Notes under the pieces: model-generated
Told to the model about the DNA's origin: nothing
The model's database searches: none
What the model saw: the letters and a program-made list of their open reading frames with translations, nothing else
Shown: positions 5,041-64,000 of the stretch, one piece after another
Layout of the letters: each line of letters starts with the position of its first letter
Position numbering within the stretch: the stretch's first letter is position 1
Translations under genes and position numbers: made by a program
Assembly (NCBI GenBank): GCA_964016885.1
Contig: OZ024746.1
Location: 62,062,001-62,126,000 of the forward strand
Direction: 5' to 3'
Origin: Eledone cirrhosa
Lineage: Eukaryota
Length of the DNA: 64,000 bases

Positions 5041-5041
<1 letters not shown>

Positions 5042-5241
5042 GTTGTTCCGGGTTGAATCGGAGGTAACCACAGTAAGTAAGGTACTCAATACATAGCAGA
5101 GTATAACAGTTTTAATATAGATGAGATTCTACAGGACTAGAACTGTTTCATTCATTAGAAATCATCAGGAATCTGATGAGATTCCTGATGATTTCTAATG
5201 AATGAAACAGTTCTAGTCCTGTAGAATCTCATCTATATTAA

Positions 5242-5245
<4 letters not shown>
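5041..5245. mobile_element. Family B fold-back element
   Basis: Inverted arms 5108-5174 / 5179-5245 plus a unique tail 5041-5107, inside (TA)n. Confidence 0.75.
5175..5233 (+). ncRNA. Type I hammerhead ribozyme (family B)
   Basis: Stem I GATGAGATTC/GAATCTCATC (10 bp), CTGATGA (5185-5191), weak stem II ttc-taat-gaa, GAAA (5204-5207), stem III ACAG/CTGT with a CTAG-containing loop, cleavage triplet GUA. Confidence 0.75.
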
Positions 5246-5280
<35 letters not shown>

Positions 5281-5573
5281 AATGGAAGTTTAGTAAAATC
5301 GAAGTTTTGGCGGTGGCCAAGCTAACGAGATACAATTAGGTTTGTGCAGCAAAGCACTCAATGGGGTGTGTCACCCTAGAGTAATTAACTTACGTTAGAT
5401 AGCGTAACAAATTGAAAACTGCGGCAAGCGGGCTTAGCCACATAATACATCAAAACATCGAAAACACATTCAGGTTAGATAACATATATATATATATATA
5501 TATGTTTTTAGTCCAGAAATAGTCGTCAAAACAGCTTGAGCTCTGCCGCCGGGGTTAAACATTTTCCTATATA

Positions 5574-6234
5574 GGCGTAATTTGGGCTGTTTGTTTACAA
5601 ACAAACCGAGCATTATAATAAATGTTCGGTAAACCCATACGTGCATATATATATATGTGTGTGCATGTATGTATATATATACATACTACTGTACGTCTGT
5701 ATACATATATGTATGTACGTATACATACATACTTACATTTAAGTATCAGCCGTACTAAGAGTGAGAAATGAAATTTCGTTTCATTCTTTTCCATTTATCG
5801 TTTTCGGTATACCCGGCCGACTAACTCACTCGATATGCAAATTAGGCTGCTCAGCCGTTAATATTCATAAGGAAAGTATATACTTTCAGACGTTCAATCA
5901 TCTGGCAGGAAGGTATACGATGCTGACGATAGCTAATAAGCTTGAAACTAGTACATCGTTCCTGTGTCAGTGTTGAACAAAAAGGCGACGATGGTTGCCT
6001 GAACAATGTACGGCGTAATTCGGGCTGTTTGTTTACAAACAAACCGAGCATTATAATAAATGTTCGGTAAACCCATACGTACATTTATATATATGTGTGC
6101 ATGTATGTATATATATACATACTACTGTACGTCTGTATACATATATGTATGTACGTATACATACATACTTACATTTAAGTATCAGCCGTACTAAGAGTGA
6201 GAAATGAAATTTCGTTTCATTCTTTTCCATTTAT
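5574..6234 (+). mobile_element. Family F retrozyme-like / non-autonomous Penelope-type element, ~1.5 tandem units of ~437 nt
   Basis: 5574-5798 is directly repeated at 6012-6234, with one hammerhead between the copies and no ORF. Confidence 0.75.
5917..5959 (+). ncRNA. Minimal type I hammerhead ribozyme (family F), apparently intact
   Basis: ACGATG-CTGACGA-t-AGCT aata AGCT-t-GAAA-CTAG-TA-CATCGT: 6-bp stem I, 4-bp stem II, palindromic ACTAGT stem III, GUA site. Confidence 0.85.
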
Positions 6235-6250
6235 ATATATATATATATAT

Positions 6251-6607
6251 ATATGAAAAAGTTTGTCCTTCATCAGTGGCCTTCCAACCGTCGTAGGCAT
6301 TTCGTCGCTTTAAAGGCCATATACCTCAGGTTGGTGCGAGCAACGGCTAAAAAAAGTCGTTGGGACACATAAATAAAGGGGACGCTAGTGTAACAAACAA
6401 AATGGTTTAAGCAACAGAAAGTGATGAAGAAGAAAGAAACAAGTCCCAGATTTCTATGAATATAAATTCGGTGGAATCGTGAACGAGAGAATAAAGACCA
6501 TCAAACCTGGTTGAAATGTGAGCAAGGAAGGAATTTCGCACAGGTCTAACGGGAGGAAGAAGGGGTCTGGTCTGCGAATTCGGTAAACATAAGTTCTGTG
6601 AAGTCGC

Positions 6608-10512: not shown

Positions 10513-10577
10513 CACACACACATAGACACACACATATATATATATATATGTATATATAAATATACATAAATATAAGT

Positions 10578-11114
10578 ATGTATACGTACATACATATATG
10601 TGTACAGACGAACAGTAGTATGTATATATATACATACATGCACACACATATATATATGTACGTATGGATTTACCGAACATTTATTATAATGCTCGGTTTA
10701 TTTGTAAAGAATTTCATTTTTTCATTTTTTTTCATTTTTTCCATTTATCGTTTTCTGTACGCCCGGCTGACTAACTCACTCGATATGCAAATTAGGCTGC
10801 TCAGCCATTAATATGCATAAGGAAAGTAATTTACTTTCAAACGTTCAATCAACTGACAGGAAGGCATACGGTGCTGATGACAGCTTATAAGCTAGAAACT
10901 AGTACAGCATTCCTTTGTCAGTGTTGAACAAAATGGCAACGATGGTTGCCGAACACTGTACGGCTTAATTCGGGCTGTTTGTTTACAAACAAACCGAGCA
11001 TTATAATAAATGTTCGGTAAACCCATACGTACATATATATATATATATGTGTGTGCATATATGTATGTATATACATCCGTACTAAGAGTAAGAAATGAAA
11101 TTTAATTTTTTCCA

Positions 11115-11115
<1 letters not shown>
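10578..11115 (+). mobile_element. Family F copy with an inverted 5' segment and a hammerhead core (10871-10907)
   Basis: 10578-10708 is inverted relative to 10710-11115. Core CTGATGA-c-AGCT tata AGCT-a-GAAA-CTAG-TA, with weakened stem I. Confidence 0.75.
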
Positions 11116-11699: not shown

Positions 11700-11958
11700 A
11701 CTTGTTTTACTTCATGTTTATTTTTATTTTTATTTAGCTTTTATATTTATTTTCATTTGTACCGTTTCCTCTCACCCCCTTTCTTCTAAATGTCTCTCCC
11801 CCACTCCCCTACACATCATTGGAACTCTCTTCCCACACACTTTTCGCCTGAAGAAGGGCTTATGCCAGAAACGTCGTCCACCACCAATCACCATAAAGAG
11901 CGTGAAACTAATAAACATTTGTTCGTACTGCCTCTCTGTTTTGTTCCCGTTCAATTTT

Positions 11959-12006: not shown

Positions 12007-12395
12007 TTCCGTATCTCCAAAGAAATACGGTTTTAGGAAGCCGTAGCTATGCAAACACCGGGGGGCTAACGCCCTCTGGTGATGTCCAGCAGAAGCAAGG
12101 GGGACAACCGTCTATGCATTTCAGGCTTAACTGGCCATCGTTAGGACGGTCCCTTCCACCGCATGCGACTGCTAGACTAGAAGACAGGCGAGAATATATT
12201 ACTCATGCAGCTTCATATGCAAATGAGATTAATCACCTCATTTACACAGAAGAGAAAAGTATATATTCTCGCCTGTCTTCTAGCCCAGCAGTCGCAAGCG
12301 GTGGGAGGGACTGTCCTGACGATGGCCAGTTAAGCCTGAAATGCATAGCTACGGCTTCCTAAAACCGTATTTCTTTGGAGATACGAAATATTTAT
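12001..12395. mobile_element. Family E fold-back element with a hammerhead in each arm
   Basis: Inverted arms ~12001-12199 / ~12260-12395. Hammerheads at 12107-12150 (minus) and 12310-12347 (plus): CTGACGA-tGGC cagttaa GCCt-GAAA-TGCA-TA, with palindromic ATGCAT. Confidence 0.75.
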
Positions 12396-12512
12396 ACAAA
12401 TTGTATAAAGCTATGCTTGAAGCGAAATCCTATTTCTTTCATATATATATATAAATATATATATATGAAATACCTTAAGGATTGCATATTTACATGTGTG
12501 TGTATTTACGTT

Positions 12513-12543
<31 letters not shown>

Positions 12544-12545
<2 letters not shown>

Positions 12546-12950
12546 GGTGGCTGCCAACTCGTTTTCGAGTACGGCCACTACTTTATATCCATGTAGGAGA
12601 ACCCCTACCGATGCGCTGAACGAGTGTCACTTTTTAGTCCAGCCAGCGACTTGAAAACTCTGGTACAAACACTACACTTGTGACAATTATTGACACATAG
12701 TGCTGGGCCCATGGTACCATGTGACGACAAGTGCAGAGAGATCTCCAGATATAAAGCAATGCCTGTGCTGTGAAGCTTTTATAGTGAGCAAAGGCACTGC
12801 ACAAAGCCAGTCCCACTCTCTTAACCAAGATGATATTTACCAAAAAGAAGAACAAGGCAACATCTTTGGATACCATCAGAGTTGCAGGTGTTATATCAGA
12901 GTTTTCCTTCTAGAATTCTGCCTTGACAAAGGCTAAGGGGTCATCTCTCC

Positions 12951-12953
<3 letters not shown>
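12544..12953 (-). mobile_element. Family G retroposon, truncated
   Basis: Fixed left boundary ATGGTGGCTGCCAACTCG next to a microsatellite, near-identical to 30137, 40377, 43309 and 50838. Confidence 0.85.
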
Positions 12954-13026
<73 letters not shown>

Positions 13027-13094
13027 AACGTAAATACACACGCATGTAAATATGCAATCCTTAAGGTATTTGTGTAAACATACACATACAACCA

Positions 13095-20433: not shown

Positions 20434-20857
20434 ATATGAAGAAAAGCTTTTCTCACAGAAATATTTATACGCTAAAATACAAAGATGGTTTTGGCAACTT
20501 GTAGTTATCGGCTGATTCCAGAAGCCAAACAAGGAAAGGACGAGGAAAATCATGCGACTTTTATCTCATTATGGACAACTGACGCTGCACACCAGGTACG
20601 AACACAAAAGAGCCGAACTCCCACTGTCATCGCTTCCATCTCTCTGTATTATGAGCAAATGGGTCCCACGTGCTGGCCGCCCCACGATCCCGGGGGACCG
20701 AATGGTGAAGGCGTTTCCCCGGAGGATGGTAAGGGAGGTGTTTTGTAATTTTAAAATTAAAAAAATCCACCTTAGTAATGCTTTTCACGTTTGCAGTCCT
20801 TTATACTTTATTTTTCAACATTTGCAAACATAACTTCTCTCAATCATTATCTTATGA

Positions 20858-21254
20858 ATTGGCAGTATCAGTAGAGGGTCAGACGCCATGCTTTGCAGCT
20901 CAGTTACGTCCCTTTACCGACTTAATTCAAATCCCGCCGAGGTTAACTTTGCCTTTCATCTTTACAGGGTCGATAAAATAAAGTACCAGTAATGTACTGG
21001 GTAATTGGTGGCCTTGAGCCATAAGTAGAAACAATTACCTTATTATCTTTATATGCACCCCTCCTTACCCAAGACGGATATAACACGATTAGACTAATAT
21101 TATCTCACTGACAGCGCATAGAGTTACGGCCCTTGCCATTCTGAGTTCAAATCCCGCCGAGGTTAACTTTGCCTTTCATCCTTACGGGGTCGATAACATA
21201 AAGTACCAGTAATACACTGGGTAATTGCTGGCCTTGTGCCTAACGTAGAAACAA
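20858..21254 (+). mobile_element. Two head-to-tail SINE family H copies
   Basis: Cores at ~20945 and ~21165, each ending GTAGAAACAATTA. Confidence 0.85.
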
Positions 21255-21341
21255 TTATCTCACTGACATCGAATTTATGACTTTACAATCTCCTGTTGCT
21301 TTTCTCATCTGATCATTTCTTGTCAGCGTATATGTGAATGA

Positions 21342-22972: not shown

Positions 22973-23151
22973 GAGATTCTACAGGACTAGAACTGTTTCA
23001 TTCTTTAGAAATCATCATGATTCCTGATGATTTCTAAAGAATGAAACAGTTCTAGTCCTGTAGAATCTCTTCTATATTAAAACTTTTATACTCTGCTATG
23101 TATTGAGTACCTTACTTACTGTGGTTACCTCCGATTCAACCCGGAATAACG
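22967..23151 (+). mobile_element. Family B fold-back element with a hammerhead at 23019-23067
   Basis: GATTC-CTGATGA-tttctaaagaat-GAAA-CAG ttctagtc CTG-TA-GAATC, preceded by an inverted copy of the same segment. Confidence 0.78.
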
Positions 23152-28351: not shown

Positions 28352-28573
28352 TATTTTATATTTCGTTTCTGAATTTGTTTAGCAAGATTCTTTATCTGAA
28401 ATCTTGTGTTGAAACCGATATTGTTATACTTTGGGAGGGTCATGTTGCCAATAAGAAACACACGCACCAGTTGATTTCACTTCAATTTATTATAATAAAT
28501 TTATAATAAATTTATAAATTTATAAATTTCTGGTTGGTTGGTTGGTTCCACAACCAGATAGTTGTTTATATAT

Positions 28574-28618
28574 AGTCATAGTCCTTTCGTCACACACTCT
28601 GTGACCTCTTCAGTGACT
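28574..28618 (-). ncRNA. Minimal type I hammerhead ribozyme (family C, left arm)
   Basis: AGTCA-CTGAAGA-g-GTCAC agagtgt GTGAC-GAAA-GGAC-TA-TGACT. Confidence 0.7.
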
Positions 28619-28724
28619 GGGGATTTCTTTCTTTGTTTCTGTGCCTCTCCTTTGTTCTGTCCTACGCCATTTTGTTTCTAGGACAGAACAAAGGAGAGGC
28701 ACAGAAACAAAGAAAGGAATCCCC

Positions 28725-28769
28725 AGTCACTGAAGAGGTCACAGAGTGTGTGACGAAAGAACTATGACT
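28725..28769 (+). ncRNA. Minimal type I hammerhead ribozyme (family C, right arm)
   Basis: AGTCA-CTGAAGA-g-GTCAC agagtgt GTGAC-GAAA-GAAC-TA-TGACT. Confidence 0.7.
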
Positions 28770-29524
28770 ATATATAAACAACTATCTGGTTGTGGAACCA
28801 ACCAACCAACCAGAAATTTATAAATTTATAAATTTGACCCTCCCAAAGTATAACAATATATAATTAATATTTTATATTTTTTATATTTGTATCGACCTTC
28901 CGCCTGACACTGCGTTGTCTTTATACACTCCCTTCCCTGTATATATCACATACATATATGTGGTTGCGCGTGTGTGTATGTTTATACGCGTGCGTCCTTT
29001 CATCCTTGTATGTGTCTATATTTCAGCCCTTAGTCCCTGATGTACGCTAACTCCATTATCTTATCTTACAATTCCTTTTTCAACATATATATATATATAT
29101 GTATTGTTATACTTTGGGAGGGTCATGTTGCCAATAAGAAACACACGCACCAGTTGCTTTCACTTCAATTTATTATAATAAATTTATAATAAATTTATAA
29201 ATTTATAAATTTCTGGTTGGTTGGTTGGTTCCACAACCAGATAGTTGTTTATATGTATTTGTGGTCACACATACACTAACGTTTGCCCTCATGTATGTAC
29301 TTACGCACACATTTTTTTCACTACACACATGCAGTTGTACATACACACACATATACATATGTACATAAGTATGTGCATATACACTCATTTACACACATCC
29401 CCTTACTATATTTCTTCATTTTTATTTGTTTATACATTTCTTGTATTATTACTTTTATTTATTTTTTTTGCTCGTTAAACTTTTGCCTTTCTTGAGGAGA
29501 TTTTTCAAATATTTCAGTGTTTTA

Positions 29525-29939: not shown

Positions 29940-30136
29940 CAAACAAACAAAACACAGGAGGCAAATTTAAAATTATATTAGGTTATATCTACATACATAC
30001 GCACATACACATATGCATGTAAGCATGCATACATATACACAAGCATACATACATAAATATTTACATACATATATACATATACATACATACATACATATAT
30101 ACATGTACATATATACATAAATATTTACATACATAT

Positions 30137-30746
30137 ATGGTGGCTGCCAACTCGTTTTCGAGTATGGCCACTACTTTATATCCATGTAGGAGAACCCCTA
30201 CCGATGCGCTGAACGAGTGTGACTTTTTAGTCCAGCCAGCGACTTGAAAACTCTGGTACAAACACTACACTTGTGACAATTATTGACACATAGTGCTGGG
30301 CCCATGGTACCATGTGACGACAAGTGCAGAGATCTCCAGATATAAAACAATGCCTGTGCCGTGAAGCTTTTATAGTGAGCAAAGGCACTGCACAAAGCCA
30401 GTCCCACTCTCTTAACCAAGATGATATTTACCAAAAAGAAGAACAAGTCAACATCATTGGATACCATCAGGGTTGCAGGTGTTATATCAGAGTTTTCCTT
30501 CTCCTAGAATTCTGCCTTGACAAAGGCTAAGGGGTCATCTCTCCCGGTGATTTTGGATGGCCATTGACTCTTAAGACCTCCTTTGCCCTTTGACAGGTTT
30601 TGTTTTTAGTCCTGCAGGATGTCCAAAGTCACCCTCCTCACCAAGAAACCTTGGTGGGGTTGCCAGTTTAGTCGCCAACGACGCGACCATGGGACAAGTT
30701 GTACTGGGATACATGTTACCAGTAGCACCAACTGGTGACCTGACAT
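30137..30746 (-). mobile_element. Family G retroposon, apparently full length (~610 bp)
   Basis: Longest copy. The minus-strand 5' region has GTCGTTGGCGACTAAA, similar to a motif I recall from RTE-related 5' ends (unverified). Confidence 0.8.
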
Positions 30747-30906
30747 ATATATATACATATATACATACATATATACATACATATGAACATACATACATAT
30801 ATATACACACGTATACATACATAAATATTTACATACATAAATATTTACATACATACGTGCATACATACATACATACATAATAGACACGCATTCGTACATA
30901 CATAAA

Positions 30907-31140
30907 TGGTGTGGAGTGGAGTGGTGTGGAATGGTGCGGTGTGGTGTGGAGTGGAGTGGTGTGGAGTGGTGCGGTGTGGAGTGGAGTGGTGTGGAGTGGT
31001 ATGGAGTGGTGTGTGTGGGAGTGTGCAGTGGAGTGGTGTGGAGTGGTCTGGAGTGGAGTGGTGTGGAGTGGTGCGGTGTGGTGTGGAGTGGTCTGGTGTG
31101 GTGTAGAGTGGAGTGGTGTGGAGTGGTGTGTGTGGGAGTG
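30907..31140. repeat. (GTGGA)n/(GTGGT)n pentamer satellite
   Basis: Direct reading. Confidence 0.95.
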
Positions 31141-31394
31141 TAGTACAAGTGAGAATTGTAAGGTGATGTAGTGAGTTGAATTGTTGATGTGCATGGCGTG
31201 GGTGTGGTAGGTAGGATAAGGAGAGTGAGAGGGGGAGAGTGGAAGGGTGGTGGTGTGATTGGATGAGGCGGAGGTGTGGTGAGGTGGAGCGGTGTAGTAT
31301 AATTTGTTTCATTAGAAGCTGGAACGATGGCGTTGGGAGTGGGGTGCTGGCAGTGGTTGTGATGGTGGTGTAGTTTGTGGTTATGTTGCTGTTG

Positions 31395-34300
31395 TGTTGG
31401 TGGTAGTGGTGATGGTGGTGGTAGTGGTGGAGGTGGTGGTAGTGGTGGAGGTGGTGGTAGTGGTGGAGGTGGTGGTAGTGGTGTTTGGTGGTGGTAGTGG
31501 TGGAGGTGGTGGTAGTGGTGTTGGTGGTGGTAGTGGTGGAGGTGGTGGTAGTGGTGTTGGTGGTGATAGTGGTGGAGGTGGTGGTAGTGGTGTTGGTGGT
31601 GGTAGTGGTGGAGGTGGTGGTAGTGGTGTTGGTGGTGATAGTGGTGGAGGTGGTGGTAGTGGTGTTGGTGGTGATAGTGGTGTTGGTGGTGGTAGTGGTG
31701 GAGGTGGTGGTAGTGGTGTTGGTGGTGGTAGTGGTGGAGGTGGTGGTAGTGGTGTTGGTGGTGGTAGTGGTGGAGGTGGTGGTAGTGGTGTTGGTGGTGA
31801 TAGTGGTGTTGGTGGTGGTAGTGGTGGAGGTGGTGGTAGTGGTGTTGGTGGTGGTAGTGGTGGAGGTGGTGGTAGTGGTGTTGGTGGTGGTAGTGGTGGA
31901 GGTGGTGGTAGTGGTGTTGGTGGTGGTAGTGGTGGAGGTGGTGGTAGTGGTGTTGGTGGTGATAGTGGTGGAGGTGGTGGTAGTGGTGTTGGTGGTGATA
32001 GTGGTGTTGGTGGTGGTAGTGGTGGAGGTGGTGGTAGTGGTGTTGGTGGTGGTAGTGGTGGAGGTGGTGGTAGTGGTGTTGGTGGTGGTAGTGGTGGAGG
32101 TGGTGGTAGTGGTGTTGGTGGTGATAGTGGTGGAGGTGGTGGTAGTGGTGTTGGTGGTGGTAGTGGTGGAGGTGGTGGTAGTGGTGTTGGTGGTGATAGT
32201 GGTGGAGGTGGTGGTAGTGGTGTTTGGTGGTGGTAGTGGTGGAGGTGGTGGTAGTGGTGTTGGTGGTGATAGTGGTGGAGGTGGTGGTAGTGGTGTTGGT
32301 GGTGGTAGTGGTGGAGGTGGTGGTAGTGGTGTTGGTGGTGGTAGTGGTATTGGTGGTGGTAGTGGTGGAGGTGGTGGTAGTGGTGTTGGTGGTGATAGTG
32401 GTGGAGGTGGTGGTAGTGGAGTTGGTGGTGATAGTGGTGGAGGTGGTGGTAGTGGTGTTTGGTGGTGATAGTGGTGTTGGTGGTGGTAGTGGTGTTGGTG
32501 GTGGTAGTGGTGGAGGTGGTGGTAGTGGTGTTGGTGGTGATAGTGGTGGAGGTGGTGGTAGTGGTGTTGGTGGCGGTAGTGGTGTTGGTGGCGGTAGTGG
32601 TGTTGGTGGTGGTAGTGGTGTTGGTGGTGGTAGTGGTGTTGGTGGTGATAGTGGTGGAGGTGGTGGTAGTGGTGTTGGTGGTGATAGTGGTGGAGGTGGT
32701 GGTAGTGGTGTTGGTGGTGGTAGTGGTGTTGGTGGTGGTAGTGGTGTTGGTGGTGGTAGTGGTGTTGGTGGTGGTAGTGGTGTTGGTGGTGGTAGTGGTG
32801 TTGGTGGTGGTAGTGGTGTTGGTGGTGATAGTGGTGGAGGTGGTGGTAGTGGTGTTGGTGGTGGTAGTGGTGTTGGTGGTGGTAGTGGTGTTGGTGGTGG
32901 TAGTGGTGTTGGTGGTGGTAGTGGTGTTGGTGGTGGTAGTGGTGTTGGTGGTGGTAGTGGTGGAGGTGGTGGTAGTGGTGTTGGTGGCGGTAGTGGTGTT
33001 GGTGGTGGTAGTGGTGTTGGTGGTGGTAGTGGTGGAGGTGGAGGTGGTGGTAGTGGTGGAGGTGGTGGTAGTGGTGTTGGTGGTGGTAGTGGTGTTGGTG
33101 GTGATAGTGGTGGAGGTGGTGGTAGTGGTGTTGGTGGTGGTAGTGGTGTTGGTGGTGGTAGTGGTGTTGGTGGTGGTAGTGGTGTTGGTGGTGGTAGTGG
33201 TGTTGGTGGTGGTAGTGGTGTTGGTGGCGGTAGTGGTGTTGGTGGCGGTAGTGGTGTTGGTGGTGGTAGTGGTGTTGGTGGTGATAGTGGTGGAGGTGGT
33301 GGTAGTGGTGTTGGTGGTGGTAGTGGTGGAGGTGGTGGTAGTGGTGTTGGTGGTGGTAGTGGTGTTGGTGGTGATAGTGGTGGAGGTGTTGGTAGTGGTG
33401 TTGGTGGTGATAGTGGTGGAGGTGGTGGTAGTGGTGGAGGTGGTGGTAGTGGTGTTGGTGGTGGTGGTGCTGGAGGTGGTGGTAGTGGTGTTGGTGGTGA
33501 TAGTGGTGGAGGTGGTGGTAGTGGTGGAGGTGGTGGTAGTGGTGTTGGTGGTGGTGGTGGTGGAGGTGGTGGTAGTGGTGTTGGTGGCGGTAGTGGTGTT
33601 GGTGGTGGTAGTGGTGTTGGTGGTGATAGTGGTGGAGGTGGTGGTAGTGGTGTTGGTGGTGGTAGTGGTGTTGGTGGTGGTAGTGGTGTTGGTGGTGGTA
33701 GTGGTGTTGGTGGTGATAGTGGTGGAGGTGGTGGTAGTGGTGTTGGTGGTGATAGTGGTGGAGGTGGTGGTAGTGGTGGAGGTGGTGGTAGTGGTGTTGG
33801 TGGTGGTGGTGGTGGAGGTGGTGGTAGTGGTGGAGGTGGTGGTAGTGGTGTTGATGGTGGTGGTGGTGTTGGTGGTGGTAGTGGTGGAGGTGGTGGTAGT
33901 GGTGTTGGTGGCGGTAGTGGTGTTGGTGGTGGTAGTGGTGTTTGTGGTGATAGTGGTGGAGGTGGTGGTAGTGGTGTTGGTGGTGGTAGTGGTGTTGGTG
34001 GTGGTAGTGGTGTTGGTGGTGGTAGTGGTGTTGGTGGTGATAGTGGTGGAGGTGGTGGTAGTGGTGTTGGTGGTGATAGTGGTGGAGGTGGTGGTAGTGG
34101 TGGAGGTGGTGGTAGTGGTGTTGGTGGTGGTGGTGGTGGAGGTGGTGGTAGTGGTGGAGGTGGTGGTAGTGGTGGAGGTGGTGGTAGTGGTGGAGGTGGT
34201 GGTAGTGGTGGAGGTGGTGGTAGTGGTGGAGGTGGTGGTAGTGGTGTTGGTGGTAGTGGTGGAGGTGGTGATAGTGGTGGAGGTGATGGTAGTGGTGTTG

Positions 34301-36065
34301 GTGGCGGTAGTGGTGTTGGTGGTGATAGTGGTGGAGGTGGTGGTAGTGGTGGAGGTGGTGGTAGTGGTGTTGGTGGTGGTGGTGGTGGAGGTGGTGGTAG
34401 TGGTGGAGGTGGTGGTAGTGGTGTTGATGGTGGTGGTGGTGTTGGTGGTGGTAGTGGTGGAGGTGGTGGTAGTGGTGTTGGTGGCGGTAGTGGTGTTGGT
34501 GGTGGTAGTGGTGTTGGTGGTGATAGTGGTGGAGGTGGTGGTAGTGGTGTTGGTGGTGGTAGTGGTGTTGGTGGTGGTAGTGGTGTTGGTGGTGGTAGTG
34601 GTGTTGGTGGTGATAGTGGTGGAGGTGGTGGTAGTGGTGTTGGTGGTGGTAGTGGTGTTGGTGGTGGTAGTGGTGTTGGTGGTGGTAGTGGTGTTGGTGG
34701 TGATAGTGGTGGAGGTGGTGGTAGTGGTGTTGGTGGTGATAGTGGTGGAGGTGGTGGTAGTGGTGGAGGTGATGGTAGTGGTGGAGGTGGTGGTAGTGGT
34801 GGAGGTGGTGGTAGTGGTGTTGGTGGTGATAGTGGTGGAGGTGGTGGTAGTGGTGGAGGTGATGGTAGTGGTGGAGGTGGTGGTAGTGGTGTTGGTGGTG
34901 GTAGTGGTGTTGGTGGTGGTAGTGGTGTTGGTGGTGGTAGTGGTGTTGGTGGTGATAGTGGTGGAGGTGGTGGTAGTGGTGTTGGTGGTGGTAGTGGTGT
35001 TGGTGGTGGTAGTGGTGTTGGTGGTGGTAGTGGTGTTGGTGGTGATAGTGGTGGAGGTGGTGGTAGTGGTGTTGGTGGTGATAGTGGTGGAGGTGGTGGT
35101 AGTGGTGGAGGTGATGGTAGTGGTGGAGGTGGTGGTAGTGGTGGAGGTGGTGGTAGTGGTGTTGGTGGTGGTAGTGGTGTTGGTGGTGGTAGTGGTGTTG
35201 GTGGTGGTAGTGGTGTTGGTGGCGGTAGTGGTGGAGGTGGTGGTAGTGGTGGAGGTGGTGGTAGTGGTGGAGGTGATGGTAGTGGTGGAGGTGGTGGTAG
35301 TGGTGGAGGTGGTGGTAGTGGTGTTGGTGGTGGTAGTGGTGTTGGTGGTGGTAGTGGTGTTGGTGGTGATAGTGGTGGAGGTGGTGGTAGTGGTGTTGGT
35401 GGTGGTAGTGGTGTTGGTGGTGGTAGTGGTGTTGGTGGTGGTAGTGGTGTTGGTGGTGATAGTGGTGGAGGTGGTGGTAGTGGTGTTGGTGGTGATAGTG
35501 GTGGAGGTGGTGGTAGTGGTGGAGGTGATGGTAGTGGTGGAGGTGGTGGTAGTGGTGGAGGTGGTGGTAGTGGTGTTGGTGGTGGTAGTGGTGTTGGTGG
35601 TGGTAGTGGTGTTGGTGGTGGTAGTGGTGTTGGTGGCGGTAGTGGTGGAGGTGGTGGTAGTGGTGGAGGTGGTGGTAGTGGTGGAGGTGATGGTAGTGGT
35701 GGAGGTGGTGGTAGTGGTGAAGGTGGTGGTAGTTGTGTTGGTGGTAGTGGTGGAGGTGGTGGTAGTGGTGGAGGTGGTGATAGTGGTGGAGGTGGCGGTA
35801 GTGGTGAAGGTGGTGGTAGTTGTGTTGGTGGTAGTGGTGGAGGTGGTGGTAGTGGTGGAGGTGGTGATAGTGGTGGAGGTGGTGGTAGTGGTGGAGGTGG
35901 CGGTAGTGGTGGAGGTGGTGGTAGTGGTGTTGGTGGCGGTAGTGGTGTTGGTGGTGATAGTGGTGGAGGTGGTGGTAGTGGTGGAGGTGGTGGTAGTGGT
36001 GGAGGTGATGGTAGTGGTGGAGGTGGTGGTAGTGGTGGAGGTGGTGGTAGTGGTGGAGGTGATGG
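31395..36065. repeat. 4.7-kb GGT-based satellite with 15-bp period
   Basis: Units GGTGGAGGTGGTGGTAGT / GGTGTTGGTGGTGGTAGT / GGTGTTGGTGGTGATAGT-like. The plus strand is almost free of C. Confidence 0.97.
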
Positions 36066-36222
36066 TATCGATGAAGTTAATGTTAGGTAGGGAATTTCTC
36101 TGTCTTTTCAGGCGACATGCAGTTCCTAGGTGATATCCACAGTGATATGATATAGGTGGAAGAGGAGGAGAAGGAGGATGAAGAAGGGGAGGCGGTTATA
36201 TATATTTACATATATATATACA

Positions 36223-36261
<39 letters not shown>

Positions 36262-36268
<7 letters not shown>

Positions 36269-36735
36269 ACGTTAAGACGGGCGTTCGGGAAAGTGAAAGT
36301 AAATTTTTTGACAACATTGTGAATTTGTTTTTTTTCTTTTACAATGAAAGTTACGATACACACGCAATTGTATGGATTTCTTAATATATATATATGTGTG
36401 GGTGTGTATATGTGTGTATACATGTGTGTACACTGTGAATTTGTTTGTTTATTTACAACAGGTCTCTATAGTGATATGGTGTTAATTAGTATTGCGTGTG
36501 TGATTATTTTTTCTTTAGATAAACGTTAAACGATGATGATGATGACACAAACACATATATATATACATACAGACACACACATGTATACACACATATACAC
36601 ACCCATACATATATATATATTAAGAAATCCATACAATTGCGTGTGTATCGTAACTTTCATTGTAAAAAAAAAAAAGAAAATTCACAATGTTGTCAAAAAA
36701 TTTACTTTCGCTTTCTCGAACGCCCGTCTTAACGT

Positions 36736-36742
<7 letters not shown>
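36262..36742. repeat. ~168-bp inverted repeat with ~145-bp spacer inside (TA)n
   Basis: ATGGCATACGTTAAGACGGGCGTTCG... (36262-36429) is the reverse complement of 36574-36742. Confidence 0.85.
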
Positions 36743-36811
<69 letters not shown>

Positions 36812-36813
<2 letters not shown>

Positions 36814-37590
36814 CAAAAATGAAACGAAATTTCATTTCTCACTCTTAGTACGGCTGTTACTTAAATATAAGTATGTACACGTACATACATAGATGTATAC
36901 AGACGTACAGTAGTATGTATATATATATACATACATGCACACATATATATATGTACGTATGGATTCACCGAACATTTATTATAATGCTCGGTGTGTTTGT
37001 AAACAGACATCCCTAATTAAGCCGTACAGTGTCTAGTAACCACCATTGCTCATTTGTTCAACACTGACAAAGGAACGCTGTACTAGTTTCAAGCTTATTA
37101 GCTATCATCAGCAATATATTAGCTATCGTCAGTATATATATATACATACTACTGTACGTCTGTATACATATATGTATGTACGTATACATACTTATATTTA
37201 AGTAATAGCCGTACTAAGAGTGAGAAATGAAATTTCGTTTCATTTTTTCCGTTTATCGTTTTCGGTACCCCGGCCGATTAACTCACTCGATATGCAAATT
37301 AGGCTGCTCAGCCGTTAATATGCATAAGGAAAGTATATACTTTCAGACATTCAACCATATGGCAGGAAGGTATACGTTGCTGACGATAGCTAATAAGCTT
37401 GAAACTAGAACAGCGTTCCTTTGTCAGTGTTGAACAAATGAGCAACGATGGTTGCTAGACACTGTACGGCTTAATTCGGGATGTTTGTTTACAAATACAC
37501 CGAGCATCATAATAAATGTTCGGTGAATTCATACGTACATATATATATGTGTGCATGTATGTATATATACATACTACTGTACGTCTGTAC
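36812..37590 (+). mobile_element. Family F: inverted partial copy (36815-37133) plus just over one forward unit (37134-37590), two hammerhead cores
   Basis: Minus core at ~37075-37113 is CTGATGA..GAAACTAGTA. Plus core at 37374-37416 has the cleavage triplet mutated (CTAGAA). Confidence 0.8.
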
Positions 37591-37592
37591 AC

Positions 37593-37702
<110 letters not shown>

Positions 37703-39995: not shown

Positions 39996-40318
39996 AATAA
40001 GTAAAACATGGGGAAGTTTCTCATCAATATTTTATTGATTATTGATTAGTCACGTACGTTTCACAGATGATTGGCTCAAGATCCTTACTTGTGTTAGGGA
40101 CCAGACTCCAGCACCAATCTGCTCATCTGAAGTCATCCAGTATCGCACGGAATATATATACATACCTATCTATACCCACGAGTATTTAGAATGAGTGTGT
40201 CTGAGCACAGCCAAAACACACAAGCATACACACACACACGCGTGCATATATGGGTACATACTTTCTTACATACATACGTGATGCAACATTACATACATGA
40301 ATGCATACGTACGTACAT

Positions 40319-40376
<58 letters not shown>

Positions 40377-40380
<4 letters not shown>

Positions 40381-40655
40381 TGGCTGCCAACTCGTTTTCG
40401 AGTATGGCCACTACTTTATATCCATGTAGGAGAAGCCCTACCGATGCGCTAAACGAGTGTGACTTTTCAGTCCATCCAGCGACTTGAAAACTCTGGTACA
40501 AACACTACTCTTGGGACAATTATTGACACATAGTGCTGGGCCCATGGTACCATGTGACGACAAGTGCAGAGAGATCTCCAGATATAAAGCAATGCCTGTG
40601 CCGTGAAGCTTTTATAGTGAGCAAAGGCACTGCACAAAGCCAGTCCCACTCTCTT
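40377..40655 (-). mobile_element. Family G retroposon, truncated
   Basis: Same fixed left boundary, shorter right extent. Confidence 0.85.
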
Positions 40656-41418
40656 ATATATATATACATACATACGTACATACACACACAGGCATACATA
40701 CATACATACATACATACATGCAAAAATTTGTGAAATTATTAAACCAGAAGAACATACATACACACGCATACATACATACACACGCATACATACATACATA
40801 CATACACACGCATACATACATAAATACATACATACATACATACATACATACATACATACATACGCACACATACATACACACGCATACATACATACATACA
40901 TACATACATACATACATACATACATACATACATACATAGTCTACAAATGGCTGCGATAGCTGGCACCTTCAAAATTTGCAAAACATTCTTGCGATTCAAG
41001 GGATGACAATTTCTTTTCTTTTACAACCTTGCCACCAGGAAGGTGGCCGGTCAAAAAAATATACTCGAAATTAAGAGAAAGAGATAACAGACATACATGC
41101 ATACAAGCACGGCTGGATTAAAACCTTTTCAGGCACTAAGGGCTGAAAAGATTATTGTGTCCCCATATAGAGTATATGGAAAAACATTCCCATATACTGA
41201 TCAGGAGAAAAACTTCGTGTAGCCCCTTTTAACTGGAGGCTCTAATCCCGTGTTTATTTTAGTCAGTGGTTAATCCCGAGCTTCATACAAGTGAGGGTGA
41301 AATAGGTGTAAAACTTGGTTATTAAAGGCCAATGTTGTTCAACACCTGGCTTTATGTTGTTGACACGTTCGGGAGTATAAAGATATATAGAAATAATATT
41401 CACTGCAGTTGTTACTGT

Positions 41419-43146: not shown

Positions 43147-43265
<119 letters not shown>

Positions 43266-43308
43266 TATATACATATTTACATATATATATATATGTGTAT
43301 ATATATAC

Positions 43309-43898
43309 ATGGTGGCTGCCAACTCGTTTTCGAGTACGGCCACTACTTTATATCCATGTAGCAGAACCCCTACCGATGCGCTGAACGAGTGTGACTTTTT
43401 AGTCCAGCCAGCGACTTGAAAACTCTGGTACAAACACTACACTTGTGACAATTATTGACACATAGTGCTGGGCCCATGGTACCATGTGACGACAAGTGCA
43501 GAGAGATCTCCAGATATAAAGCAATGCCTGCGCCGTGAAGCTTTTATAGTGAGCAAAGGCTCTGCACAAAGCCAGTCCCACTCTCTTAACCAAGATGATA
43601 TTTACCAAAAAGAAGAACAAGTCAACATCAATGGATACCATCAGGGTTGCAGGTGTTACATCAGAGTTTTCCTTCTAGAATTCTGCCTTGACAAAGGCTA
43701 AGGGGTCATCATTCCCGGTGATTTTGGATGGCCATTGAATCTTAAGAGCTCCTTTGCCCTTTGACAGGTTTTGTCCAAAGTCACCCTCCTCACCAAGAAA
43801 CCTTGGTGGGGTTGCCAGTTTAGTCGCCAACGACCCGACCATGTGACAGATTGTACTGGGATACATGTTACCAGTAGTACCAACTGGTGACCTGACAT
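43309..43898 (-). mobile_element. Family G retroposon, near full length (small internal deletion)
   Basis: Colinear with 30137-30746. Confidence 0.85.
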
Positions 43899-43941
43899 AT
43901 ATATACATACATATATACATACACACACACATATATATATA

Positions 43942-44012
<71 letters not shown>

Positions 44013-50112: not shown

Positions 50113-50837
50113 CAGACTTTTTGGTGACATTATCACTGTTTATATATATAATTGTTATCTGTTGTAGAGTTTAATTCATCTTTACATGATGAACCTCTTC
50201 CCTTCCCGTCTGCTGTCACCGACGTCTTGAGTCCTTGTAATTAATAAAATATTGTTGTTATTGTTGTTGTTGATGATATGTTTTGTGTCGTCTGTTATTG
50301 AAAACGAAAACTAGATTAGCAAGAAGCTTTATAGATTGTTAACTAGAACGTTGAGATTCTTCTTCATAAGTTGCACACCCGTCTGAATAAACAAAAACTA
50401 GAGAGAACACAAACACATACAGCTTTACATACAATACATCGACATACACAATAGTACATAGACACACACACACACACACACACATAGAGTATTACATATA
50501 GTACACTGACATAATCATTAGCAATAACTACACATATATAGGGTGTGTTAACATACACAGACAGATTCAAATACATACATACTCAATGGCAGAATACACA
50601 TACACATACACACACTTTGAGACACTGATGAACAAATTCATACATACATATATACATATATACACACACATGCACATACATTCACATGCATACATACATA
50701 CATACATACATACATACATACATACATTCATTCATTCATACATACATACATACATACATACATACATGCATACATACATACATACATACATACATACATA
50801 CATACATACATACATACATACATACATACATACATAC

Positions 50838-51248
50838 ATGGTGGCTGCCAACTCGTTTTCGAGTACGGCCACTACTTTATATCCATGTAGGAGAACCCCT
50901 ACCGATGCGCTGAACGAGTGTGACTTTTTAGTCCAGCCAGCGACTTGAAAACTCTGGTACAAACACTACACTTGTGACAATTATTGACACATAGTGCTGG
51001 GCCCATGGTACCATGTGACGACAAGTGCAGAGAGATCTCCAGATATAAAGCAATGCCTGTGCCGTGAAGCCTTTATAGTGAGCAAAGGCACTGCACAAAG
51101 CCAGTCCCACTCTCTTAACCAAGATAATATTTACCAAAAAGAAGAACAAGTCAACATCATCGGATACCATCAGGGTTGCAGGTGTTATATCAGAGTTTTC
51201 CTTCTCCTAGAATTCTGCCTTGACAAAGGCTAAGGGGTCATCTCTCCC
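50838..51248 (-). mobile_element. Family G retroposon, truncated
   Basis: Same fixed left boundary next to (TACA)n. Confidence 0.85.
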
Positions 51249-55572: not shown

Positions 55573-56760
55573 TTGGCAGTATCGGTAGAGGGTCAGACAT
55601 CATGCTTTGACGCATAGAGTTACGGCCCTTTCCATTCTGAGTTCAAATCCTGCCGAGGTCAACTTTGCGTTTCATCCTTACGGGGTCGATAAAATGAAGT
55701 ACCAGTAATGTACTGGTAATTGCTGGCCTTGTGCCAAAAATAGAAACAGTTATATACTTAACCTATTCAACAGTCATATCACTACATTAACATGAAATTC
55801 CTTACAGCACACATTAGACTAAACATTGCAAGAGTTATTGTTTTCGTTTAAGAGGGAAATATCTGCCCCCATAGCCTATAGAGATGTTCATAGCTTAAAA
55901 TGATAGAGTGAGGCGATTAAATGGATCATATTATTACTTTCTTGGGTGGATTGGCAGTATCGGTAGAGGGTCGGATGCCATGCTTTGATGCATAGAGTTA
56001 CGGCCCTTTCCATTCTGAGTTCAAATCCCGCCGAGGTCAACTTTGCCTTTCATCCTTCCGAGGTCGATAAAATAAAGTACCAGTAATGTACTGAGTAATT
56101 GCTGGCCTTGTGCCAAAAGTAGAAGCTGTTATATATACATATATATATGTATATATATACATATATATATGGTAACTTCCTATATATATAACTTTCCAGC
56201 ATAGTTACGTCCCTTTACGATCTGAGTTCAAATCCCGCCGAGGTCAACTTTGCCAGTCATCCTTACGGGGTCGATGAAATAAAGTACCAGTAATACACTG
56301 GGATAATTGCTGGCCTTGTACCAAAAGTAGAAACAATTATTATTTTTTTCAGGGTGTTGGATTGGCAGTATCGGTAAAGCATCAGACACCATGCTTTGCA
56401 GCATAGAATTGTGGCCCTTTACGTTCTGAGTTCAAATCCCGCCGAGGTTTACTTTGCCTTTCATCCTTACGGGGTCGATAATATAAAGTATTGCTGGCCT
56501 TGTACCAAAAGTAGAAACAATTATTACTTTCTTCTTCTTTATTGATTTTTCTTTCTTTTTTTTTTCTGTTTGGCAGTATCGGTAGAGCGTCGAACACATG
56601 CGTCGTAGCATAAAGTTACGGCCCTTTACGTTCTGGGTTCAAATCCCGCCGAGGTTAGCTTTGCATTTCATCCATACGGGGTCGATAAAATAAAGTACCA
56701 GTAATGCGCAAGGGTCGATTTCCCTTCAAATTGCTGGTCTTGTGCCTAAAACTAGAAACA
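55573..56760 (+). mobile_element. Cluster of five same-orientation SINE family H copies
   Basis: Copies at ~55573, 55945, 56197, 56355 and 56569. Confidence 0.88.
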
Positions 56761-57818
56761 ATTATTACTTTTTACCGTCCTCCTTGTCCACATTGGGATG
56801 ATCTTCATTTTTGGTGCCTGCGGTGTTTAGCAGATGGGAGTTTAAACGTTTTGCTGGATAGGAATGAAATACAACTTTGCCAGCCAATGAAACACTAGTG
56901 GAGATTTATTCATGCCTGGGAAGTTTTCTCACCAGTCTTATGTTAAGTCTTTTGTGCTTTTTAACGACTGGTCGATTCATCAGGGAGAGAAAAAAGAAGA
57001 TTTATAAATGTTTCAAAGTTAAATATTAAGGAGGGATTGGCTAAACTTACATCATCATTAGATACCGCCGTCTGAATGATGAGAAGGGAGTAAATAGCTT
57101 GGTATGATATATTAGTTAATAATAATAAACGAGAAGGAAATGGAGTCCATTGACTGGACTCCATTTCCATCTCGTTTGGTGTGTCGAATGAATGAACACT
57201 AAAGAGTGAGTTTTACAAATGAAAGTCGGTGTATCTTATTTTCTATATATAAATCATTATGGATGATAGGAGAGAGAGAAACATGAAAGTGAAGAATCTA
57301 GTCATAAGTAACCACTCCTCAAACACAACATCAGCAAATGTATTAGGTGTGTCTTTAATGTAATTTGCAAATTCAGGTACTTACATGAAAGTTGTAAACA
57401 CCATGAACATTTCTATAAGGGTGGGACGTCCACAATCTCTCAAGAAGATTCGTTATGCACCTATATGAAGACGACTTACAATGTTGTTCTACAGTCATAT
57501 GTATAGAAAGAAAGCTTTTTATAGGAAATAGAAAAAGTATCGAGAAAATAGCAAATAAATAATCCTTTCATATCAAAATATTTCAATAGCATTACAATCT
57601 TTCGAATTGCGAGTTAACTAAAACGTATTTCTATTCGCAATTTTTTATACTGAAGCACATAAATTATGAAATATGTATAACCACATACAGCAATACACTA
57701 CATGGGTTAATAAAGGGGTCCCTACTTAGTCATTGGTATTGTTAGAAATAGTTTTCCTCAAACTGTACCCTACCAGTTTTAAATATGGAAGGACATATTG
57801 GTTAATGTGGTCCTAGAT

Positions 57819-58947: not shown

Positions 58948-59341
58948 TTGGCAGTATCGGTAGAGGATCGGACGCCATGCTTTGACGCATAGAGTTACGG
59001 CCCTTGCCATTCTGAGTTCAAATCCCGCCAAGGCTAACTTTGCCTTTCATCCTTACAGGGTCGATAACATAAAGTACCAGTAATGCACTGGATAATTGCT
59101 GGCCTTGTGCCAATAGTAGAAACAATTATTATTATTATTATTGTTACTGTAAATGAGGTCGGTGGATTGGCAGTATCCGTAGAGGGTCGGACGCCATGCT
59201 TTCCAGCATAGTTACGTCCCTTTACGATCTGAGTTCAAATCTCGCCGAGGTTGACTTTGCCTTTCATCCTTACGGGGTCGATAAAATAAAGTACCAGTAA
59301 TGCACTGGGTAATTGCTGGCCTTGTGCCTAAAGTAGAAACA
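58948..59341 (+). mobile_element. Two head-to-tail SINE family H copies
   Basis: Separated by (ATT)n. Confidence 0.88.
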
Positions 59342-59865
59342 ATTATTGTTAATATCATGTTTATACAATTTTTATCATAAATAAATTAATTACTATATAT
59401 ATATTACCGTATCTTCAATGTACATTCACCCGTAACTAATATACTAACACAAACCAATTAACTCTCCTTAATCTAATGTTGGTATCATATGTCAGCGAAA
59501 GTATAATTCATTCTACCTTAACAGCTTACCAATGTAAACATGTATTTCTTCCTCCTCCTTCCTCCACTAACACGACATGTTAGAAAGTGCGAGTGACTTA
59601 ATATCATATTGTTGAATCGGCTTTATAGTCATGTATTTAACTAGATATGATCTCTCTCTCTCTCCCTCTCTCTCCCTCTCTCACCCTCTCTCTCCCTCTC
59701 TCTCCCTCTCTATATATATGTATATATATATAATAGAAATAGTATTTCGCTTCAAGCATAGCTTTATTATACAAATATGTATAGAAATTTCGTATTTCTA
59801 AAGAAACATGGTTTTAAGAAGCCGGAGCTAACGCCCTCTGGTGTCCAGCAGAAGCAAGGGGAACA

Positions 59866-62409: not shown

Positions 62410-63594
62410 AGATTATTAGAGTAATTTTTCTTTCCATCGTCCCAACGTTCATTCCTTTCTGATGATGATCTCCACAATACTTCTGACAACTGGACATTGT
62501 TTTATTACTTCAATAATTTACAGTGACGTTTTACACTCAGCGTTTTAATTCTTTCTTAAGGTGTTATCGTTTGATCCTACCCCCATCATCCGGACATTCT
62601 CAGCTGACATTTTCATCCACTACTATTTACCTACACATATCTCTCAAGACTTCCTTCCTGCTGAGGGATTGGTAGAATCGGTAGAGCGACAGACAAATTG
62701 GATTATGTTTAGTTGCTTCCCTTTTTGCACTCAGTTCAAATGTCGGTCGAGGTCACCTTTGCCTTTTATTCTTCTTAAAGGGCAACAAAATGAAGTACCA
62801 ATGACTATATTGGAAATTTTAAAAAAAGCATATACGTACATATACATGCACATACATATACATACATATACATATGCATACACATATATACTCATACATA
62901 TACATACAAATACACGTACATACACATACGTATGCATACATACACACATACATATACACATACATACACATATATATACATGCACATACAAATACATACA
63001 TATACAATCATATAGATACACATACATATACATACATATACATACACATACATATACACACACATACATACATATACATACAAATACACATACATACACT
63101 TACATATACATGCGCATACATATACACATACATATACATTCATACACATACATATACACATACACATACATATACATATACATACAAACACACATACATG
63201 CACATACATATACATGCACATACACATAGACATACACATACATACAAATACACACACACATACATATATACACATACATATACATATACACATACATATA
63301 CACATGCACACAATACGTTTGTAAAAGGCGGAACTCCCGTTTCAAAATGAATGCTCATCGCTTAATTAATTTTATAGATCGTAAAAAGTTCTTTTTAATT
63401 ATCTTAGGGAATTCATTTCACATTGGCGTCTAATTATTTATAGGGATATAAAATATAAAATCAATATAGCTGGGAGCCGCAATCAACAAAGTGAGGTGTT
63501 GTGATCGAGTTATATCTCTGATGAGACTTTCCATTCCTCCAGCGTCCATCATATTTCTTTATGGCTACCGTCTCCGACAGATAAGGGCGGATAA

Positions 63595-63987
63595 TTGTTT
63601 CTACTTTGGCGCCAAGGACAGCAATTATCCCCAGTGCATTACTGGTACTTTATTTTATCGACCCCCGTAAAGGATGAAAGGTAAAGTTAACCTCGACAGG
63701 ATTTGAACTCAGACCGTAAAGGGACATAACTGTGTGGGAAAGCATGGCGTCCGACCTTTTACTAATACTGCCAATTCACCGCCCCACTGCAGATCATTGT
63801 TTCTGCTTTTGGCACAAGGCCAGCAGTTATCCCAGTACATTACTGGTACTTTATTTTATCGACCACCGTAAAGGATGAAAGGCAAAGTTAACCTCGGCGG
63901 GATTTGAACTCAGAATGGCAAGGGCCGTAACTCCATGCGTCAAAGCATGGCGTCCGACCCTCTACCGATACTGCCAATCCACCGCCC
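63595..63987 (-). mobile_element. Two head-to-tail SINE family H copies
   Basis: Full reverse-complement copies at 63595-63785 and 63798-63987. Confidence 0.88.
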
Positions 63988-64000
63988 GTGTGCAGATAAT

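Follow-up and report, generated by a model that had tools for sequence, protein, structure and literature searches.

A non-coding hammerhead repeat of Eledone cirrhosa with the insertion anatomy of Penelope-like elements: a candidate non-autonomous retrozyme

What kind of element is the short hammerhead-bearing repeat at positions 5574-6234 of a 64,000-nucleotide stretch of the Eledone cirrhosa genome (contig OZ024746.1, positions 62,062,001 to 62,126,000; hereafter the window), and from what template was it copied? The first-pass annotation described about 1.5 head-to-tail units with an intact minimal hammerhead and no open reading frame, took other copies in the window to be circularly permuted, and proposed a retrozyme that produces circular RNA. 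The copy is one dispersed member of a very abundant non-coding repeat. Its 661 nt amount to 1.5 times a unit of 436-438 nt, as claimed, the segment 5574-5798 recurring at 6012-6234 (97.8% over 225 columns, period 438). No frame of at least 120 amino acids overlaps it, in agreement with the absence of an open reading frame. The insertion is made up as follows.

5568-5573: short TATATA at the 5' junction of the insertion
5574-6234, plus strand: single-armed insertion of 1.5 units (unit positions 214-436, then 1-436; unit position 1 is at 5799)
5799-6234, plus strand: full 436-nt unit, which serves as the reference
5911-5963, plus strand: type I hammerhead with an extended stem I (AGG/CCT helix, TAT bulge, unpaired T5960), predicted cut 5953/5954
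5947-5952, plus strand: palindromic stem III, ACTAGT, with one A-U pair and a tetraloop in the monomer and six pairs in the predicted dimer
6075-6170, plus strand: long TA/CA-rich hairpin of varying length, just 5' of the short 3' site
6178-6234, plus strand: 'tail' of 57 nt, separating the short (about 6177) and long (6234) 3' end sites
6235-6253, strand not applicable: (TA)n target tract at the fixed 3' end of the insertion

All parts of the hammerhead named in the annotation, that is its stems, core, GAAA, ACTAGT palindrome and GUA, are found at 5917-5959. Residues 5917-5922 pair with 5954-5959 to form stem I, the core CTGACGA occupies 5923-5929, stem II consists of 5931-5934 and 5939-5942, and GAAA lies at 5944-5947. 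The cut triplet is GUA, and cleavage is predicted between 5953 and 5954. The word minimal fits stem III only: beyond a UAU bulge and an unpaired U (5960), stem I runs on into a three-pair helix and a distal stem. A loop-loop tertiary contact may form in the ribozyme, a proposal based on its presumed likeness to full type I hammerheads. The stem III duplex of the dimer has a predicted energy of −6.8 kcal/mol. For an axolotl hammerhead whose stem III comprises one pair and a palindromic tetraloop, the published account gives poor cleavage alone and good cleavage as a dimer (PMC7229834). The element carries one hammerhead, not two; with its single ribozyme, the locus at 5574-6234 cannot by itself release a unit circle, and it is likely a dead-end daughter.

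The fold is conserved, including the extended stem I and loop II, as in non-LTR retrozymes. In a structure alignment of 11 rows, 98.3% of the cells are paired, against 35-48% in slid controls. Two-sided changes affect 10 of the 16 ribozyme pairs, mostly between the window family and a sister family with a 310-nt unit, making this covariation largely one family-to-family comparison with three related rows on the 310-nt side and 11 rows overall. Within the family, a particular pair of stem I takes the form U.G, A-U or G.U in 197 of the 202 unit copies that were listed. The 310-nt sister matches the window unit nowhere outside the ribozyme, in which it retains the bulge and the unpaired U of stem I, the basal U.U of stem II, an AAYA loop and a stem III that is still palindromic. 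Rfam gave no hammerhead match at the gathering score and none among 75 rows ranked by E-value, where only look-alikes of the TA hairpin (mir-297 and others) appeared; a search pattern for a hammerhead of identical shape but with a different base in stem II had no matches. The unit RNA is predicted to be highly self-paired, again as in non-LTR retrozymes: its circular fold reaches −131.3 kcal/mol, against −92.6 ± 6.1 kcal/mol for shuffled sequences (z −6.3, partly due to the TA-rich hairpin; none of 40 shuffles reached so low a value). Folding of the minus strand is likewise favourable (−119 versus −131 kcal/mol).

Across the 3.0 Gb of genome searched, the 33-nt pattern of the ribozyme core has 10,303 exact matches and its reversed control none, so the hammerhead is not a chance occurrence. 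Exact searches likewise found 6,871 stretches of the tail and 10,479 from the middle of the unit, with no matches to either reversed control. A looser ribozyme pattern has 32,964 matches, which include sister families with units of about 466-500 nt and of 310 nt. For insertion anatomy, we used 130 merged regions of one contig (C1) together with the window, chosen by exact patterns as the first places listed plus seven multi-hit places taken deliberately. This gave 229 arms, 228 of which were kept after removal of one at a region edge. The 75 full units measure 415-511 nt, and at least two cut sites are crossed by 31 of the 228 arms; the family thus consists of short units arrayed head to tail, each of them bearing a type I hammerhead.

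The sister families were encountered in several places. Copies of the 310-nt retrozyme (L067, 491-2940; L256; L254, 4134-5001) are 95-100% identical, with two 3' ends about 26-31 nt apart and one long and one short end in both of the two complete pairs. Arrays with 466-500-nt units, about 80% identical to the window unit, lie at C1:5540000-5545000 (L254), and further ones at C1:11817000-11823000 (L255) and C1:14403000-14406500 (L257). The window itself contains hammerhead-like cores of other repeat families at 11848, 12316, 45223, 59903 and 62230, an inverted pair in (TA)n at 12007-12400, another inverted pair adjoining the third copy at 36197-36807, and about 259 copies of an 18-bp G/T-rich satellite at 30907-36067. 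Five copies of a (TA)n-associated repeat of about 430-870 nt lie at 12441-13056, 29990-30855, 40216-40656, 43154-44007 and 50683-51248. A tandem SINE-like repeat of 190-220 nt, which we take to be an octopus SINE, occurs at 20855-21260, 55945-56773, 58948-59355 and 63587-64000.

The 3' ends of the arms fall at two fixed sites about 60 nt apart, which together account for 189 of the 228 arms: 107 end at the long site (86 of them exactly at unit position 436), 82 at the short site and 39 elsewhere. The short site covers unit positions 364-388, being blurred by TA microhomology and a small indel. A (TA)n tract follows 87 of the 107 long ends, 68 of the 82 short ends and nine of the 39 others. The 5' ends are scattered throughout the unit, with local maxima in two tracts of simple repeats. 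They do not accumulate at the cut site, where 5.8 of the 228 would be expected and four are found, in a sample in which many loci were chosen by an intact ribozyme and arms starting at the cut site are therefore under-represented. The 30 best DNA matches, viewed separately, show the same end pattern. What had been read as circular permutation is thus variation of the 5' ends only. Since fixed 3' ends are also the rule in Penelope-like elements, this amounts to 5' truncation of the ordinary sort and does not by itself speak for a circle.

The arms are arranged in a regular way. A total of 140 of the 228 arms form 70 head-to-head pairs, and among the 47 pairs in which both ends could be classed, 44 combine a long with a short end, two have two long ends (at one complex locus) and one has two short ends. 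The excess of long-plus-short pairs has a p value of 1.2e-10 against an expectation of 0.5. Target-site duplications, which in non-LTR retrozymes exceed 4 bp when present, are unreadable within the (TA)n targets. Fixed 3' ends with a tail, ragged 5' ends, an inverted 5' arm and a microsatellite target together form the anatomy of a non-autonomous Penelope-like element. At C1:19618000-19626500 (L267), two-armed insertions of the window family have been duplicated along with their junctions, a sign of later duplication at the DNA level.

The two further copies in the window, given in the annotation as 10578-11115 and 36812-37590 and as single permuted units, turn out to be head-to-head pairs of a minus and a plus arm.

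10562-10711, minus strand: inverted arm of copy 2, short-type end
10724-11115, plus strand: forward arm of copy 2, with an internal deletion, a long-type end and a decayed hammerhead
36812-37113, minus strand: inverted arm of copy 3, long-type end at (TA)n
37135-37605, plus strand: forward arm of copy 3, with a mutated cut triplet, ending at unit position 355 before (TG)n

Copy 2 is a long-plus-short pair, while one end of copy 3 is unclassed. The pairing said to be kept in these copies is in fact damaged. Copy 2 has two mismatches in stem I and a C.A at the base of stem II, and the loop letter altered in it is 98% invariant across the family. In copy 3, GAA replaces the GUA triplet in the plus arm and the minus arm is cut off inside stem I. 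The hammerhead variants of both copies are private decay.

Coding Penelope-like families of the same genome provide controls. Pairs with one long and one short end make up four of four in a family with a 784-aa frame of reverse transcriptase plus GIY-YIG (L251; 3' ends 41 nt apart) and four of five in the L103 family (60 nt apart), both counts being read by eye. In the L316 family, with a 758-aa frame, they make up ten of ten, two further pairs being unclassed (ends about 68 nt apart). All three families end in (TA)n. Coding Penelope elements of this genome also occur as tandems of 4.7-6 kb; one apparently intact tandem element (L251, 1563-8651) has a period of 4,734 nt and a 455-aa upstream frame, which belongs to no Pfam family, and the hammerhead pattern has no match in this element. 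Pfam gave no match in the L118 frame, nor the PDB to that of L316, a family which we take to be Hydra-like. The ribozyme of the L316 type has 4,142 exact matches. Among L316-family loci (L291-L314) there are many short two-armed insertions with both 5' ends a few bases upstream of the hammerhead core, which may reflect a stop of reverse transcription at the ribozyme or a bias of the search pattern. One short head-to-head insertion of this type lies in the window at 5041-5243, with one long and one short end in (TA)n and two hammerheads, at 5168 (minus strand) and 5185 (plus strand); position 23024 marks a third copy. The L103 family is present as inverted pieces at 28358-29257, with hammerheads at 28613 (minus strand) and 28730 (plus strand).

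Mobilisation by Penelope-type enzymes is, on this anatomy, very probable. In another reading, the copies are fragments of the terminal repeats (pLTRs) of a long autonomous Penelope-like element, for which fixed 3' ends, a tail, inverted arms and (TA)n targets are all typical; besides, the family was read as a sample only. The annotation had named such pieces with fixed ends as the case that would speak against it, and of this the fixed 3' ends are borne out and the long element is not. Upstream of a unit lies another unit (up to nine times), a flank or the inverted arm. Six pairs among the 56 free 5' flanks share sequence, none of them at the same unit position, which argues against a fixed upstream continuation. 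Of 54 loci with coding Penelope-like frames, five match the unit, at unrelated places, and in none of the coding loci examined does the unit stand at a fixed place or is a reverse transcriptase plus GIY-YIG frame joined to the repeat. The pLTR reading is close to refuted, and we give it the least credence of all. Scarcely more probable is a minisatellite or SINE spread by amplification at the DNA level or by LINE enzymes, with the hammerhead as a passenger. Tandem arrays are present, alternating units could stem from local DNA duplication, and the flanks often contain LINE frames; however, two fixed 3' ends, one per arm, are not expected from DNA amplification, there is no poly(A) tail, and the anatomy is that of the Penelope-like elements of this genome.

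No 3' or pLTR similarity to the unit was found in the four Penelope families sampled (L251, L103, L118 and L316), and with the L316 element it shares no sequence outside low-complexity stretches. Matches of 14-16 nt near the ends of coding families, reached by 2-8 of 300 shuffles in 11 comparisons and out of register, are only hints of a helper. Hints only, too, are the L316 ribozyme, which is the nearest one in a coding family (25 of 28 positions identical to the 310-nt sister, with no match to the window unit), and the tail length, which agrees best with the L103 or L316 family. The unit has neither a protein-coding frame nor an LTR organisation, as in non-LTR retrozymes, and its type I topology and tandem units are not those of plant LTR retrozymes, which have type III hammerheads in their LTRs. 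From these features, all testable in DNA, the element is identified as a non-autonomous and probably Penelope-mobilised non-LTR retrozyme, with cleavage and circles, the defining traits of such retrozymes, being predicted.

As to the template, 167 of the 228 arms cross the cut site, the longest measuring 7.5 and 9.35 units, so the template was there either uncut or re-joined. The retrozyme type, a reverse-transcribed origin and copies longer than a unit that read through the cut site are parts of the earlier interpretation that stand; permutation as evidence for a circle does not. Divergence between the two arms within an insertion is 4.8%, compared with 10.1% from one insertion to another (44 pairs). 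In the array at C1:9967262, 1-3 substitutions separate the seven units of one arm, and 2-5 set off the complete unit of the other arm, whose final, partial unit aligned poorly and was left out; all ten units over both arms carry a variant seen in 0.4% elsewhere. This homogeneity fits rolling round one circle, and a young homogeneous source array gives the same. At L063, two unit types alternate (ABAB), like units showing 0 and 4 differences and unlike units 14-16; in L102 and L066, haplotypes are mixed within one arm, and at L181 one unit in each arm has private variants in common. A single monomer circle cannot be the template of the ABAB and mixed-haplotype arms; the patterns of these four loci call for a circle of two units, a linear multimer, template jumping or later events in the DNA. 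Subfamily switches located at the cut site would suggest ligation of RNA; judged by eye, their breakpoints looked scattered.

The explanation towards which we lean is that a borrowed Penelope-type reverse transcriptase/endonuclease pasted in the repeat, probably by copying a ribozyme-cut and re-ligated circular RNA. Loci with two or more ribozymes, like the 31 arms counted above, would be transcribed, and the tandem ribozymes are predicted to pair through the palindromic stem III and to excise RNAs of one or several units. A host ligase may then circularise these, judging from the coral, mussel and axolotl relatives. The insertion footprint suggests that the two strands of a (TA)n tract are cut by a Penelope protein that is probably dimeric, and that TA microhomology of a few bases allows one strand to be primed at the long site and its partner at the short one. 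Taken with the published picture of two sites and both-strand cutting, the long-plus-short rule points to a single protein complex that primes each cut strand at a different site. Copies would then extend upstream over 0.2 to 9 units, running through the cut site and having no fixed stop, and their two 5' ends would join head to head or one arm would be lost, as at 5574-6234; the DNA displays products of these kinds. That a circular template, the candidate RNA, served for a large share of the insertions is in our view somewhat probable.

A more specific and rather unlikely version of this circular route is twin-primed rolling-circle reverse transcription, in which a Penelope dimer would copy one small RNA circle from two sites 60 nt apart for up to nine rounds. 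ABAB arrays would then come from two-unit circles, formed when a tandem ribozyme is skipped or when two different cut monomers are ligated. If true, Penelope-like elements in general would have a circular intermediate, and a single model would account for their one-sided tail and inverted arms. It is possible, though we think it less probable than circular templates in general, that the mobilisation was the same and the template an uncut linear multimer from tandem source arrays, combined with template jumps, with circles as by-products. The ABAB and mixed-haplotype arms and the shared private variants at L181 favour such a multimer, arrays of 7-9 units are available as possible sources, and the 4.7-6 kb tandems of coding elements indicate that tandems do not need a small circle. 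In the in vitro study of an anole Penelope element, uncut RNA is given as the dominant substrate and ribozyme mutants still insert (PMC11167929); for Xenopus dimers, eight of nine are reported without cleavage in vitro. Yet 5'-truncated copying shortens a linear source at each round, and arrays that are both long and near-identical must then be renewed by some step; the ribozyme fold is retained across subfamilies and sister families, and relatives are described as accumulating as circles (PMC7229834).

The kind of element is already known from other animals, and the finding adds support rather than a new class. The metazoan non-LTR retrozymes of coral, mussel and axolotl (Cervera and de la Pena 2020, PMC7229834) are likewise described as non-coding tandem units of a few hundred nucleotides with one type I hammerhead per unit and no LTR. 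Two axolotl ribozymes given there resemble that of the window: HHR_Amex1 in a stem III of one pair and a palindromic tetraloop, and HHR_Amex2 in the U.U at the base of stem II. Circles were demonstrated for those elements, whereas the window family is known from DNA alone. The results and discussion of that paper mention neither a pair of fixed 3' ends nor two-armed insertions nor targeting of (TA)n, and Penelope-like elements are named there only as a strong candidate helper. For vertebrate non-LTR retrozymes (consensus 51-972 nt, mostly in short arrays), Li, Clavereau and Pollet (2026, bioRxiv 10.64898/2026.07.22.740005) make the same proposal as here, that of non-autonomous Penelope-like elements, based on co-occurrence and pLTR similarity in 35 genomes, the stated sample being without a mollusc; the window family is linked to Penelope by its insertion anatomy instead, and no pLTR homologue was found for it. 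The literature searched, to which Repbase, Dfam, subscription journals and supplements did not belong (they may hold the family), contained no report of an octopus or other cephalopod retrozyme, nor of twin priming or a long-plus-short priming rule in Penelope.

Endonuclease-bearing (EN+) Penelope-like elements, as described by Craig et al. (2021, PMC8557442) and Frangieh et al. (2024, PMC11167929), share with the window family 5' truncation, partial tandems and (TA)n or AT-rich targets. An inverted 5' copy and a tail often present at one end only (PMC8557442) are also as found here. For the anole element, initiation at two internal sites, cleavage of both strands, AT-rich targets and a predicted dimer are described (PMC11167929), and head-to-tail non-autonomous forms are cited from Chlamydomonas (MRC1; PMC8557442, PMC11167929). 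The tail quoted for EN+ elements is 30-40 nt, against about 57-63 nt in the window family, which in addition is without a reverse transcriptase/GIY-YIG frame and has an extended rather than a minimal hammerhead. In the sources cited, the enzyme that spreads animal retrozymes and the origin of the inverted arms and one-sided tails of Penelope-like elements are treated as open questions. To these, the octopus family brings a counted long-plus-short rule with controls from the same genome and an ABAB array; with 436 nt, more than 10,000 copies and a 44-of-47 rule matched by coding elements, it makes a small substrate on which the predictions for circle and linear templates can be compared in vitro.
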